From Thiobacillus sp. (lineage in GTDB: Bacteria > Pseudomonadota > Gammaproteobacteria > Burkholderiales > Thiobacillaceae): a stretch of 64,000 bases of DNA. This document shows, piece after piece, positions 38,071-43,907 of this stretch (position 1 is its first letter; each line of letters opens with the position of its first letter). Both the position numbers and the translations under genes were made by a program. The notes beneath the pieces are model-generated. The model was given only the letters and a program-made list of their open reading frames with translations, ran no database searches and was not told the DNA's origin. Where the stretch lies: NCBI GenBank assembly GCA_046291555.1, contig JBKBRW010000011.1, positions 575 through 64,574 of the forward strand. The letters are read 5' to 3'.

Positions 38071-39201
38071 TCAGACGCCCGGCTGCAGCACCACGGGCAG
38101 GTCGCTCTTCTGACCGGCTCGCAGTACCGTCACCTGCACGGTGTCGCCGACGCGGTGATCGTCGAGGCGCGCCAGCAGTTCGCGTACCGACCGCACCGGC
38201 TTGCCGTTGATTGCAACAATGGTGTCGCCGGGCACGATGCCGCCGTCGCGCGACGCCGTCGCCCCCTTGAGCCCGGCGGTATCCGCGGCGGAACCCGGGG
38301 CGACGCGCAGGATCACCACGCCCTCGACACCAGTCAGCTGCATCAGGCGCTCGTTGAGCCCCTCGTCGACCTCGATGCCCAGCGCGGGCCGAATGTAGCG
38401 GCCGCTGCGGATGAGCTGCGGCACGACGCGGTTCACCGTATCCACCGGCACGGCGAAGCCGATCCCGGCGGAAGCGCCGCTCGGGCTGTAGATCGCCGTG
38501 TTGATGCCGATCAGCCGGCCGGCGGAATCGAGCAACGGCCCGCCCGAGTTGCCCGGATTGATCGCGGCATCGGTCTGGATCAGGTGCTCGATGCTGCGGC
38601 CGTTGTTGCCCTCGAGCGAACGATCGAGCGCCGAGACGATGCCGGTGGTGAGCGTCCAGTCGAGCCCGAAAGGGTTGCCGATCGCAAAGACCTTCTGCCC
38701 CACCTTCAGGTCATGGCTGGTGCCCACCGGCACCGGCGGCGGGCGCTTGAAACCGACGCCGATCTTGAGCACCGCGATGTCGTGCGCCGGGCTCACGCCG
38801 ACCAGCCCGGCCCTGAAGCTGCGCCCGTCCGCGAGCTTCACCGTCGCCTCAGAGGCCCCCTCGATCACGTGCAGGTTGGTGATGACATGCCCGGCATCGT
38901 CCCAGACGAAACCGGAGCCGGTGCCGCGCGGCACCGAGAACACGTTGCGCGTCCACACGTCCATCACCTGCGCGCGCGTGGTGATGTAAACGACCGATGC
39001 GCGCGACTTCTCGAACAGCGCGATGGTGGCCTGCTCGTCCGCAGCGAGATCGCCCCGGGCCGTCACCGTGCGCGCCGTCGCCGAGGGTTCGCCGGCAAAC
39101 CAGCTTTCGATGGCCGGCATGCTGCGCCACAGCACCATCAGCAGCGCGGCAGCGAGCGTGAGCCAGACGAGACGGGAAAGGAAGCGGTCTTTCGCAGGCA
39201 T
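38071..39201 (-). CDS. DegP/HtrA-like serine protease with one PDZ domain
   Basis: GTGSGF, TNLHV, DIAVL, GNPFG, TDAAINPGNSGGP. Confidence 0.95.
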   Translation of the reverse strand: MPAKDRFLSRLVWLTLAAALLMVLWRSMPAIESWFAGEPSATARTVTARGDLAADEQATIALFEKSRASVVYITTRAQVMDVWTRNVFSVPRGTGSGFVWDDAGHVITNLHVIEGASEATVKLADGRSFRAGLVGVSPAHDIAVLKIGVGFKRPPPVPVGTSHDLKVGQKVFAIGNPFGLDWTLTTGIVSALDRSLEGNNGRSIEHLIQTDAAINPGNSGGPLLDSAGRLIGINTAIYSPSGASAGIGFAVPVDTVNRVVPQLIRSGRYIRPALGIEVDEGLNERLMQLTGVEGVVILRVAPGSAADTAGLKGATASRDGGIVPGDTIVAINGKPVRSVRELLARLDDHRVGDTVQVTVLRAGQKSDLPVVLQPGV

Positions 39202-39267
39202 GGCGTTCAATCAGATCGAATGGGTTGGCGATCGGCGACTGCCCGCAAACGTCACGGGCCACCGGCG

Positions 39268-39765
39268 TCAGCGGGCTTCAGCGTCCCCGCGCTGCGCGGC
39301 ATTGTCCCGCAGATCCCGTTCCCGCAACAGCCAGTAGACCAAGCCCAGCGCGAGGGCCGCGCCGGCGAGCGCCGCCAGCTTGGCCGGTGCGACGTCGGCA
39401 TCGAGGATGATGAACTTGCGGGACAGCGCGAGCAGCGCGATCAGCACGACCGTCTTGACCTGAATGATGCTGTCGCGGCGCAACGCGACCTTGAGAATGG
39501 AATGCTTGAATTCCATCGCGATAAGCAGCGTCATGATCATCCCGAACACCGTCTGGAACACCTGGTGTTCGAGCGGGTTGAAGGAATCGAGCACGAGCAG
39601 CACGAAAACCGTGCGGATCAACTGCACCAGCGACACCACGATGACGACGGCGATAACGGCGGAAAGGATGAGCGCGATGACCTGCTCGAAACGCTCGTAG
39701 AAGCTCATCACGCCCCACTCCTGGCGGAAGCGTTCGAGCTTGGTCTTATAGTCCTCGTTGGTCAT
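39268..39765 (-). CDS. PsiE-family membrane protein
   Basis: FGMIMTLLIAMEF; VKTVVLIALLALSRKFIILD. Confidence 0.85.
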   Translation of the reverse strand: MTNEDYKTKLERFRQEWGVMSFYERFEQVIALILSAVIAVVIVVSLVQLIRTVFVLLVLDSFNPLEHQVFQTVFGMIMTLLIAMEFKHSILKVALRRDSIIQVKTVVLIALLALSRKFIILDADVAPAKLAALAGAALALGLVYWLLRERDLRDNAAQRGDAEAR

Positions 39766-39831
39766 CGGTCAAGTTCCCCCTGTGGTACACGTTTTCCAAG
39801 CCTCGGGATGCGCGCGTCGAAAACCTCGGCC

Positions 39832-41679
39832 CTAGGCGAGCCCGCCGGCGCCATCGCCTGGCGCGGTTTTACGCATGTCGCGGGTCAATTCACGGATGGT
39901 ATTTTCGTCGAGCGTCTCGCTTGCCAGCAACGCACGCGCGCAGCGCTCGAGTATGGCGCGGTTATCGTCGAGCAGACGGAAGGCACGCGCGAAGCCGGCC
40001 TTGACGATGCCGCGCACGGCCTCGTCGATCCGAGCCTGCGTCGACTCCGCCAGTCGGCCGCTGCCGGCGCCCATGTCCGGCACGTCGAGGAAGCGCGGCC
40101 GTTGCGCCTCGAAAGCGACGTAGCCGAGGTCCTCGTCCATGCCATAGCGCGTGATCATGTCGCGGGCGATGTCGGTGGCTTTCGCCAGGTCGTCGGCCGC
40201 GCCGGTGGAGAGTTCGCCGAACACCAGCTTCTCCGCGGCACGCCCGCCGAGCAGCACGGCGATCTTGTTTTCCAGTTCCTGCCGCGTCATCAGGTAGCGG
40301 TCCTCGGTGGGGCGCTGGATGGTGTAGCCCAACGCGCCGATGCCGCGCGGGATGATCGAGACCTTGTGCACCGGGTCGGTGCCGGGCAGCGCCAGCGCGA
40401 CCAGCGCGTGACCCATTTCGTGGTAAGCCACGGTCTCGCGTTCCTTGTCGTTGAGGATGCGGTTCTTCTTTTCCAGGCCGGCGACGATGCGCTCCACTGC
40501 GGCGGTGAAGTCGGCCAGCGTCACTGCATCGGCCTTGCGGCGCGTCGCCATCAGCGCCGCCTCGTTCGCCAGGTTGGCGAGATCGGCGCCGGAAAAGCCG
40601 GTGGTGAGCGCGGCCACCTGTTCGAGGTCGACCTCGGGCGCGAGCTTGATTTTTCGCACGTGCACCTTGAGGATGGCCAGCCTGCCCGGCTTGTCGGGGC
40701 GGTCGACCAGCACCTGGCGGTCGAAGCGGCCGGCGCGCAACAGCGCGGGATCGAGAATCTCCGGCCGGTTGGTGGCGGCGAGGATGATGAGCCCCACCGA
40801 GCTGTCGAAGCCGTCCATTTCGGTGAGCAGCTGGTTCAAGGTCTGCTCGCGCTCGTCGTGGCCGCCGATGGGGCCGGCGGCGCCGCGCGCGCGGCCCAGG
40901 GCGTCGAGCTCGTCGATGAAGATGATGGCCGGCGCCTTCTGCCGCGCCTGTTCGAACAGATCGCGCACGCGCGCCGCGCCGACGCCGACGAACATTTCCA
41001 CGAACTCGGAACCGGAGATGGAGAAGAACGGCACCGCCGCCTCGCCGGCTACCGCCTTGGCGAGCAGGGTCTTGCCGGTGCCGGGCGGGCCCACCAGCAG
41101 CACGCCCTTGGGGATGCGCGCGCCGAGGCGGCCGTATTCCTGCGGATTCTTCAGGAAATCCACCACCTCGGCGAGTTCCGCCTTGGCCTCGTCCACGCCC
41201 GCGACGTCGGCGAAGGTGACGCCGGTGTCCTTTTCCACGTAGACCTTGGCGCGGCTCTTGCCGAGGGTCATGAAGCCGCCCATGCCCTGCTTCTCGGCAA
41301 AACGCCGGAACAGGAAGAACCAAACCGCGAAGAACGCCACCGCCGGCAGCACCCACGACAGCAGATCGCGCAGGAAGGTGCTCTCGATCACGCGCGCGTA
41401 AGGCACGCCGTACTGCGACAGGCGCGCGGCGAGATCGGGCTCGACGCGGGTGGCGACGATGATGGTCTTGCCCTTGGCGTCCGGCTGCCGGAGCGTGCCG
41501 GTGAGCGTCGTGTCCGACACGGTCACCTCGGCGACGCGGCCGTCGGCGAGCGCCTGTTCGAACTCGCTATAGGGCACCGGCTCGACGGTGCGCACCGTCT
41601 GCCACCAGTCCTGCAGCGTCAGGAGCAGCAGGAGCGCAATCAGCCAGTAGGCTAGGTTCCATCCGGTTTTCTGTTCCAT
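39832..41679 (-). CDS. ftsH: ATP-dependent zinc metalloprotease FtsH (likely a second, non-core copy)
   Basis: GPPGTGKT; IIFIDELD; HEMGH; LGGRAAE. Confidence 0.96.
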
Positions 41680-42637: not shown

Positions 42638-42641
42638 GGTA

Positions 42642-42947
42642 TCAGCCGCCCAGCGTGCGCACGCGCGTGCGCAGCGCGTCGAGCTCGGCGAGCAGGTCGG
42701 CCATCAGCGCCGCCAGCTCGGGCACAGCGTCGAAGTCGCGCTCGAGCGCGCGCATGCGCCGCGCGTGGACCAGCGCGAGTCCGGAGAAACGCCACACGCC
42801 GGATACGCTCTCGGCGTGCGGAATCAGGCCTTCCTGCAGGTGGCGGACGAGCCAGTCCGGCTCGACCGCGCACGCGGCGGCCACCTGCTCCAGCGTCAGC
42901 CAGCTGTCTTCCATCAGGGTGCCGATCAGAATGTCGTCGTCAGCCAT
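42642..42947 (-). CDS. cbpM: CbpM chaperone modulator
   Basis: MerR-like small protein directly downstream of cbpA; ARRMRALERDF. Confidence 0.85.
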   Translation of the reverse strand: MADDDILIGTLMEDSWLTLEQVAAACAVEPDWLVRHLQEGLIPHAESVSGVWRFSGLALVHARRMRALERDFDAVPELAALMADLLAELDALRTRVRTLGG

Positions 42948-42950
42948 GAT

Positions 42951-43907
42951 TCATCTCCCTTGCCGTGGATCGAAGGCGAATTCCTTCGCCATCTGCTCGT
43001 AGAACGCGCGCGCCCGCGGCGTGTCGGCCGGCGGCAGCATGACCTCGACGGTCAGCAACAGGTCGCCGGGCGGCTCCCCCGGAATGCCTTTGCCGCGCAC
43101 CCGCAGTTGACGGCCGGACTGCGCACCCTCCGGAATGCGGACTTTCACCGGGCCGCCCGGCAGGTCGACGCTGACGATCGCGCCCAGCGCGGCCTCCCAG
43201 GGCGCCACCGGCAGCGTGAGGTAGAGGTCGCGCCCGTCCACCCGAAAGCGCGGATGCGGCTTGAACTGGACTTCCAGCAGCAGGTCGCCGGGCGGTCCGC
43301 CGCCGAAGCCTGGCGCGCCCTGCCCGGCCAGACGGATCACCTGGCCGGCCTTGATGCCCTTGGGAATCCTCACGTTGAGCGTGCGGGACGCGAGCGTCAC
43401 GCGGCCCTGCGCATCCATCTTCGGCGCACGCAGCGCGATCTGCCGCGTGGCGCCGGTGAAGGCGTCCTCGAGGTCGAGCAGCACCTTGGCGTGGTGATCC
43501 TCGCCCTGCATGCGCGCGCCGCCGCGGCCGGCATGGGCCTGGCCGAAGCCGCGCCCGCCCATGCCGGCGCGGCCGAAGATCTGCTCGAAGAAGTCGGAAA
43601 AGCCCGCCGCCTCGTCCGCGCGGTAGCCGTGGCCGGAAAACTCGAAACCGGCGTCCCAGTCGGGCGGCGGCCGGAAGTCCTGGCCGGGCTGGTAGCCGCG
43701 GCCCAACTGGTCGTAGGCGGCGCGCTTCTCCGGGTCGGAGAGCACCGCGTAGGCCTCGTTGACGTCCTTCATGCGCGCCTCGGCGTCCTTTTCCTTGGAC
43801 ACGTCCGGGTGGTACTTGCGCGCGAGTTTGCGAAACGCCTTCTTGATGTCCTCGGCAGTCGCGTCGCGCGGTACCCCCAGCACCTCGTAATAGTCCCTAA
43901 ATTGCAT
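42951..43907 (-). CDS. cbpA: CbpA, class II J-domain protein
   Basis: J domain with HPD; G/F region; DnaJ_C; no zinc finger. Confidence 0.92.

Follow-up and report, generated by a model that had tools for sequence, protein, structure and literature searches.

In a 64,000-nucleotide stretch of a Thiobacillus sp. genome (contig JBKBRW010000011.1 of assembly GCA_046291555.1, positions 575 to 64,574; C2:575-64574 in our contig numbering), six genes in the order cbpA-cbpM-htpX-ftsH-psiE-degP, all on the minus strand, occupy the space between dnaK and dnaJ. This stretch is referred to below as the window, and the six genes as the block. The genome (label G000) originates from a hot-spring metagenome and consists of 2.56 Mb on 78 contigs, with a completeness of 99%. 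Four of the block genes have counterparts in the transmissible stress-tolerance locus (tLST), and we examined how the two are related.

Genes between dnaK and dnaJ

Gene identities were assigned from Pfam and NCBIfam profile matches of the window proteins, and these bore out the content and order of the six genes given in a preliminary description made from the sequence alone. The first gene, cbpA (42951..43907, minus strand), encodes a CbpA-like class II J-domain co-chaperone with DnaJ and DnaJ_C domains and no zinc finger, and is the sole cbpA in the genome. It scored 256 bits against the NCBIfam equivalog NF007618, under the cut-off of 403. After a spacer of 3 bp follows cbpM (42642..42947, minus strand), whose product is a CbpM-like MerR_2 protein (PF13591, 30.6 bits against a cut-off of 29). 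In all relatives, cbpM lies directly 3' of cbpA. Judging from the profile scores, the pair belongs to CbpA and CbpM at the family level, not at the equivalog level. The arrangement resembles the cbpA-cbpM operon of E. coli, in which a J-domain and DnaJ_C protein without a zinc finger is likewise followed by a small MerR_2 protein, but here the pair heads six genes, including four of tLST type, inside dnaK-dnaJ.

The four genes that follow are all on the minus strand. htpX (41696..42637) encodes a zinc protease of the M48 family that is HtpX-like and belongs to the orf16 subfamily of tLST (PF01435), and ftsH (39832..41679) an FtsH of the tLST (FtsH2) type (TIGR01241, 777 bits) with intact Walker A, SRH and HEMGH motifs. 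The true start of this FtsH is MEQKTGW, the 714-residue open reading frame being over-extended. psiE (39268..39765; PF06146) encodes the sole PsiE-family inner-membrane protein of the genome. The last gene, degP (38071..39210, with the likely start at the ATG at 39201, MPAKDRF), encodes a DegP/HtrA-like S1C serine protease with Trypsin_2 and PDZ_2 matches, one PDZ domain and an N-terminal membrane anchor or signal. The spacers among the six genes are 3, 4, 16, 66 and 57 bp. A terminator scan and direct reading of the sequence revealed a hairpin followed by a T-run at 38002..38030, between the convergent ends of dnaK and degP, which is a probable terminator. Because the same-strand spacers are short and a terminator follows degP, we read the six genes as one operon.

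On the plus strand, the block is preceded by grpE (35399..35950; PF01025 GrpE) and dnaK (36040..37971; NF001413 DnaK, 1064 bits) and followed by dnaJ (44798..45913; NF008035, 616 bits), which is separated from dnaK by 6.8 kb. As one correction, the interval that separates cbpA from dnaJ is occupied by a DsrC-like gene (44209..44583, plus strand; PF04358, E 2e-18) with a good Shine-Dalgarno sequence, whose product has no C-terminal cysteines. A minus-strand frame in this region, 'orf125' (44071-44448), was considered as a gene and rejected, its apparent conservation being a shadow of the DsrC-like gene. The predicted operon is convergent with dnaK and divergent from the dsrC-like gene and dnaJ. 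The DsrC-like gene, found in relatives and in metagenome loci, is present in the insert at all occupied sites; it accompanies every version of the insert, adjoining dnaJ or genes for small heat-shock proteins (sHsp).

Relationship of the block proteins to those of tLST

The annotated locus of E. coli S43 was used as the reference tLST. In BLASTP comparisons with its proteins, the block proteins displayed identities of 84% (FtsH), 74% (DegP), 70% (PsiE) and 60% (HtpX), all with E values of at most 2e-72. The paralogues in the same genome are more distant. The housekeeping FtsH (contig C66) and a third FtsH (contig C13) are 49% and 58% identical to the block FtsH, respectively, three other HtrA proteins are about 40% identical to the block DegP, and the other M48 proteins are distant. 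In maximum-likelihood trees, the block and tLST versions of FtsH formed a joint clade (support 98/98) apart from the housekeeping paralogues, and the block DegP grouped with tLST DegP at 100/100, far from its three paralogues. All four proteins were placed with the tLST versions and far from housekeeping paralogues.

The FtsH linker between membrane and cytoplasmic domains is known to distinguish tLST FtsH2 from core FtsH and to be conserved in homologues of more than 80% identity (PMC10850787). The linker of the block FtsH, with (MT/LS)(L/I)GKSRAKV, aligned without gaps with that of tLST FtsH, while the housekeeping FtsH reads MRQMQGGGRGGAFSFGKSRARL. The resemblance to the island versions had been stated in the preliminary description, with motifs that are all found in the sequence (WRAWLLPGWGNPEPSWLRTHP in the HtpX tail, ARGDLAADE and the terminal LQPGV of DegP); it proved right by BLASTP, by the trees and by the FtsH linker. 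Each of the four block proteins has its orthologue in tLST (FtsH-GI, PsiE-GI, the orf16 M48 protease and DegP-GI). No similarity was found between CbpM and the tLST helix-turn-helix (HTH) protein, and the possibility that CbpM is the counterpart of the HTH gene was therefore rejected.

The conservation is less extensive at the DNA level. When the degP-psiE-ftsH stretch was compared by blastn with 5,426 complete E. coli genomes, ftsH alone aligned (81.2% identity, 46% of the query), and the 133 E. coli records matched by ftsH were all tLST copies. A plasmid search yielded no plasmid-borne FtsH closer than the standard tLST FtsH (83.7%), and an exact-protein look-up of the block FtsH among public contigs returned no record.

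The third FtsH paralogue mentioned above (G000:C13:11341-13254; L022) is 55-58% identical to the block FtsH. It adjoins LolA-like, phosphoketolase-like and MacB/FtsX-type genes, and the matches listed for the 112 congeners at E <= 1e-190 include no counterpart of it.

The block is not a tLST

The features that define tLST are a dna-hsp20-clpG core, mobile elements on its flanks (insertion sequences, Tn7 or phage genes) or a plasmid location, DNA conserved by more than 80% across hosts and a GC content of about 61% (PMC8290217). The block has no homologue of clpK, hsp20 or the HTH gene (dna) of this core. The closest thing to clpK in the genome is a gene of 47% identity on another contig, and the window contains no remnants of clpK or cls. 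There is no transposase or integrase gene between grpE and the genes beyond dnaJ, and no direct or inverted repeats bracketing the block were found. The nearest tRNA gene, tRNA-Ser(GGA) at 35196-35286, is situated directly upstream of the grpE promoter and not at the edge of the block. On the other hand, the tLST of E. coli S43 adjoins insertion sequence (IS) and Tn7 genes. The block is thus not a tLST, as it has neither the dna-hsp20-clpG core nor mobile flanks, and as a DNA identity of about 81% is attained by ftsH only.

The composition of the block was also examined. Its GC content is 68.9%, compared to 66.6±2.0% for the genome and 62.5% for tLST, and an equally high value is found in 10.8% of the genome windows of this size. 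The GC content at third codon positions (GC3) is equal in dnaK and the block (0.89-0.90) and is 0.78 in dnaJ. A compositional island was therefore rejected, GC and GC3 being native without any sign of foreign origin. The native composition suggests a long residence in the group rather than a recent arrival from outside. The preliminary description had noticed no mobility genes or IS ends; open reading frame content, the repeat search and the tRNA position agree with this. GC and codon usage are native.

The gene complements of the two loci can be compared further. The block lacks cls, yfdX1/2, hdeD and orf11 in addition to dna-hsp20-clpG(K), and has cbpA-cbpM and the dsrC-like gene instead. 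Its htpX precedes ftsH, whereas in tLST htpX is located between psiE and degP. Its flanks are grpE-dnaK and dsrC-like-dnaJ without mobile elements, and its GC content is 69% against 61-62.5%. What the two share, besides the orthologous FtsH with its FtsH2-type linker, DegP, PsiE and M48 HtpX, is the theme of extra protein quality control under heat or envelope stress. The likeness is greater in the blocks of relatives, which include a Trx2-type thioredoxin (66-73% identity), a KefB (about 59% identity where the frameshifted E. coli copy can be aligned) and sHsp genes; in the fuller versions, ftsH-trx-kefB-psiE-degP is colinear with tLST.

Distribution and variants in the genus

We surveyed 113 species genomes of the genus in GTDB by searching with DnaJ, DnaK and the block FtsH. 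In most species the distance between dnaK and dnaJ is 105-125 bp, and these empty spacers contain a long inverted repeat and no dnaJ promoter. An insert of any kind, full or reduced, is present in the spacer of about nine species, and a tLST-clade FtsH (at least 82% identical) in 11 of the 113. The view of the block as a fixture of the core dnaK-dnaJ locus is therefore not tenable. Close relatives without the block do exist, whereas mobile scars were not found; the preliminary description had named such relatives and such scars, in combination, as speaking against a resident module.

The inserts differ in content. Those of G044 and G112 consist of an sHsp gene, the dsrC-like gene and cbpA-cbpM-htpX-ftsH-trx-(secreted repeat protein)-psiE-degP, and in G070 and G003 three sHsp genes accompany this operon, likewise with trx. 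Among the named relatives that share the locus architecture, Thiobacillus sp. UBA2597 (L023) is the best; it has the operon with trx and kefB and without psiE. G084 harbours cbpA-cbpM-psiE-degP alone, and G076 psiE alone. The block examined here has neither trx nor sHsp genes; an sHsp trio is present on another contig (C77), and its synteny with the cbpA locus of G045 was uninformative, as only the sHsp genes matched. The earlier statement that CbpA/CbpM stand in place of ClpG/sHsp thus holds for this genome and not for the relatives, whose blocks include trx, between one and three sHsp genes and, in a single case, kefB. In the fuller versions, up to seven gene families are common to tLST.

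The cbpA-cbpM pair itself is found in 67 of the 113 species, usually elsewhere in the genome, where in most congeners it is on its own next to divergent sHsp genes. The block looks like such a core cbpA-cbpM heat-shock unit to which tLST-type genes have been appended downstream. In its full form, a cluster of this type (cbpA-type) would comprise sHsp genes and the dsrC-like gene, divergent from cbpA-cbpM-htpX-ftsH-trx-(kefB)-psiE-degP.

A genuine tLST is also present in the genus. In G077 (L105, G077:C6:25001-45000), HTH-hsp20-clpK-cls-ftsH ... psiE-htpX-degP is found elsewhere in the genome, with a ClpK and an FtsH that are 91% and 94% identical to those of E. coli. Directly next to it are genes coding for phage tail proteins, DUF2793 and lysozyme, and one coding for a subunit of a type I restriction system.

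Two side observations concern these loci. The empty spacers of G055 (L113 4751-4872) and G045 (L114) consist of an inverted repeat of about 100 nucleotides made up of GGGTTAGGG- or GGTGGGCGG-like units, which may be an attenuator or a processing hairpin between dnaK and dnaJ. The secreted repeat protein is an Ala/Glu/Lys-rich protein of 187 residues without a Pfam match (L103 10355-10918; also in L017 and L108). Its gene sits between trx and psiE in G044 and G006/L130, and directly after ftsH in G072.

Mosaic sequence identity at the locus

At two unlinked or flanking loci, the DNA of this genome is 86-90% identical to that of G044 and G112 and 79-80% identical to that of G070, and the housekeeping ftsH region is 79% identical to that of G070. 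Inside the block, this genome and G070 are as similar to each other as this genome is to G044 and G112 (ftsH, 91-96%; cbpA, 87-93%). The similarity of the block between species does not track genome relatedness. From the start of dnaJ onward, over at least 6 kb (44798-50500), the identity is 96-99% to G070 and 82-85% to G044 and G112. The left breakpoint of this G070-like segment lies within 44576-44797, at the edge of the block. From its identity profile, the dnaJ segment looks like a recent recombinational import from a distant congener.

This mosaic profile indicates that DNA has moved between distant congeners at exactly this locus, and recombination of the block could plausibly be anchored in the conserved dnaK and dnaJ genes. 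Within the genus, the block is accessory, probably exchanged by recombination, and not part of the core.

Predicted promoters of the operon and of dnaJ

Promoters for RpoH (sigma32) were sought with the criterion CTTGAAA-N13-15-CCCCATNT. The strict pattern CTTGAWW-N12-15-CCCMAHNT has three matches in the 2.56-Mb genome, two of which precede grpE (about 35375-35402) and dnaK (about 35975-36002). In these two sigma32-type promoters and in its gene order, the locus conforms to the grpE-dnaK-dnaJ locus of Betaproteobacteria and of the genus. It departs from the canonical dnaK-dnaJ arrangement in that 6.8 kb with genes on the opposite strand intervene, and in that dnaJ has a sigma32-like promoter of its own (44708..44736, plus strand; CTTGATT-N13-CCCCAAGAT). 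The corresponding motif, CCCTTGATTTC-N13-CCCCA(A/C)AT, is found about 70-90 bp upstream of dnaJ at all occupied sites and at no empty site.

Upstream of cbpA, a candidate sigma32-type operon promoter is located at 43945..43984 (minus strand), with the -35 element CTTGAAA inside the inverted repeat ATTTCAAGATATTGAAAT. At the same place, the relatives have CTTGAAA-N13-14-CCCATAT/A, with good matches in G084, G070, G003 and G112. From these motifs we infer that both the operon and the separated dnaJ are under sigma32-type control.

The inverted repeat ATTTCAAGATATTGAAAT is a perfect repeat of 18 bp (43967-43984) that overlaps the cbpA -35 element, and the relatives have kept its ATTTCAA half. The repeat may serve CbpM or some other regulator as an operator.

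The zinc site of the deposited HtpX

The deposited htpX carries a patch of 11-12 clustered substitutions (42187..42225, minus strand) by which VLAHEVAHIAHGD becomes GRAPQVGPHAHRE, and the HExxH zinc motif is lost. At the position of the motif the deposited sequence reads PQVGP, while independent contigs from two metagenome runs (X1 and X2) read HEVAH, and all relatives keep HExxH. The contigs of X1, a hot-spring run from which the deposited genome probably comes, tile 37700-45000 (7.3 kb) and are identical to the deposited sequence except in this patch. X2, a soil run, contains a near-identical strain with an intact HtpX motif. The patch involves neither a frameshift nor an inversion, and no donor sequence was found elsewhere in the genome. 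A pseudo-protease was rejected as a biological explanation on account of the intact motif in the independent contigs, and the loss of the zinc site is probably an artefact of assembly or polishing.

The wider family and the direction of descent

Metagenomes were scanned with the HtpX alignment, and 80 loci were obtained, 16 of cbpA type and 64 of tLST type. Among these 80, this HtpX subfamily was found only in the two architectures. The cbpA-type loci range from fragments in which htpX adjoins cbpM or sHsp genes, through cbpA-cbpM-htpX alone, to the full cluster, and one of them has dnaJ adjacent. The two architectures clearly share an ancestor, and the family of cbpA-type clusters is the nearest non-mobile relative of the protease/oxidative-stress half of tLST.

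The gene trees conflict as to which architecture arose from the other. In the HtpX tree, a shallow tLST-type clade is nested in a deep, paraphyletic cbpA-type grade (SH-aLRT 94 and 90). The DegP tree gave the reverse nesting, with the cbpA type inside the tLST type. The FtsH tree places the Thiobacillus lineages and the tLST clade either as sisters or in a polytomy. The roots of all three trees depend on long outgroup branches. In the literature that was searched, nothing linked Thiobacillus or cbpM to tLST. Reviews describe the original host and origin of tLST as not known and suspect an environmental bacterium from extreme habitats (PMC8290217).

Discussion

Taking these results together, we consider it rather probable that the block is a chromosomal heat-shock operon of the cbpA-type proteostasis family, accessory in the genus and likely spread by homologous recombination. 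Under heat or envelope stress, RpoH-type transcription of the operon would supplement the adjacent DnaK/GrpE/DnaJ system with a second J-protein and its modulator (CbpA/CbpM), two inner-membrane metalloproteases of the FtsH2 and HtpX types, PsiE, and a periplasmic HtrA-type protease. The combined effect would be a stronger quality control of membrane and periplasmic proteins. In a minority of the species, the block occupies the space between dnaK and dnaJ, and it would vary through gene loss, with trx and the sHsp genes missing here. Its transfer between species would most likely proceed by homologous recombination through the dnaK and dnaJ flanks and not by a mobile element, and the separation of dnaJ from dnaK goes hand in hand with the dedicated sigma32-like dnaJ promoter.

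Several points weigh against this interpretation. The cbpA promoter in the window matches at -35 and is degenerate at -10, a sequence confirmed by the X1 contigs, and heat induction of the operon in this genome is predicted from the promoters of its relatives. Copies of the block also lie away from dnaK-dnaJ, at one chromosomal site in G006/L130, a metagenome contig of 66 kb, and at another in G072, indicating that some other way of moving exists. The copy in G072 (L108) lacks htpX and adjoins a gene for a group II intron reverse transcriptase/maturase (L108 6629-7648). The deposited HtpX variant, if real, would leave one of the proteases inactive in this strain. Finally, an ancient presence with many losses is conceivable.

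In this last scenario, the ancestor of the genus would already have had the block between dnaK and dnaJ, most lineages would have lost it independently, and the discordant similarities would reflect only strong purifying selection on its genes. The common insertion site, flanking dsrC-like gene and dnaJ promoter in at least eight species agree with it, as do the native GC and GC3, and G084 retains half of the ancestral spacer hairpin beside dnaK. We nevertheless regard an ancient core feature as improbable, since it calls for dozens of precise losses, each re-creating a spacer of 105-125 bp in which the long inverted repeat is intact. The block ftsH is, moreover, far more similar between this genome and G070 than the housekeeping ftsH region, and the 96-99% identical dnaJ segment shows that recombination between distant congeners takes place at the locus. 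Still less credible is a tLST that integrated between dnaK and dnaJ and later lost clpG, sHsp, the mobility genes and other cargo. The differences in content from site to site do look like decay, as in G084 and G076, and G077 demonstrates a genuine tLST in a congener. However, the block proteins fall outside the tight tLST clade, with identities of 60-84% compared to 87-97% among the copies of Tepidicella, Comamonadaceae, G077 and E. coli. The cbpA-cbpM-htpX linkage recurs in many unrelated metagenome contigs, none with a clpK match on the stretches examined. The different position of htpX, the native composition and the lack of clpK or cls remnants in the window, with the best clpK match in the genome at 47%, also argue against decay; we consider this scenario very improbable.

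The preliminary description had proposed that the block is a resident module of the kind from which the island was assembled. Stated fully, a resident cbpA-linked module of this lineage would have given rise to the ftsH-trx-kefB-psiE-htpX-degP half of tLST, which was then joined to dna-hsp20-clpG and mobilised. The HtpX tree fits this proposal, and more generally the tLST clades are tight and shallow while the cbpA-type lineages are deep and diverse. Five genes (ftsH-trx-kefB-psiE-degP) are colinear between UBA2597 and tLST, the genus includes a genuine tLST in G077, and the hot-spring source of the window agrees with the extreme-habitat environmental origin suspected in reviews (PMC8290217). 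Against the proposal, the DegP tree indicates the opposite order, the FtsH tree yields sister groups or a polytomy, and the roots lie on very long outgroup branches. For HtpX, the Thiobacillus clade is further from tLST than metagenome lineages L158/L191 and L168 are, deep-branching loci of tLST type occur as well (L133, L142, L164, L167 and L174), and the GC content of tLST is 62.5% against 69% in the block. We therefore hold the progenitor scenario to be unlikely. The broader proposal that the cbpA-headed, sigma32-driven clusters of thermotolerant Thiobacillus-like Betaproteobacteria constitute the chromosomal ancestor pool of tLST, with the dnaK-dnaJ spacer as a recombination-accessible 'cassette site', is likewise doubtful.

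tLST is an island of hospital and food bacteria, and it enables E. coli, Klebsiella, Cronobacter and P. aeruginosa clone C to withstand heat and chlorine. The locus described here and its relatives define a second, non-mobile architecture with orthologues of up to seven tLST gene families. As all the individual genes belong to known families, the functional novelty is modest. The occurrence of the cbpA-type architecture in hot-spring and soil Betaproteobacteria, in the same genus as a genuine tLST, provides a concrete set of loci for comparison when the assembly of the island is to be dated and rooted, and opens the way to asking about the roles of FtsH2, the M48 protease, PsiE and DegP-GI within a native host. 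In addition, the block shows neatly how an accessory operon is kept between two genes that are among the most conserved in bacteria, and there is evidence that it is exchanged by way of these flanks. If the clusters were indeed the ancestor pool of tLST, the environmental origin of the island would have been found, in a stress operon that spreads without a mobile element.

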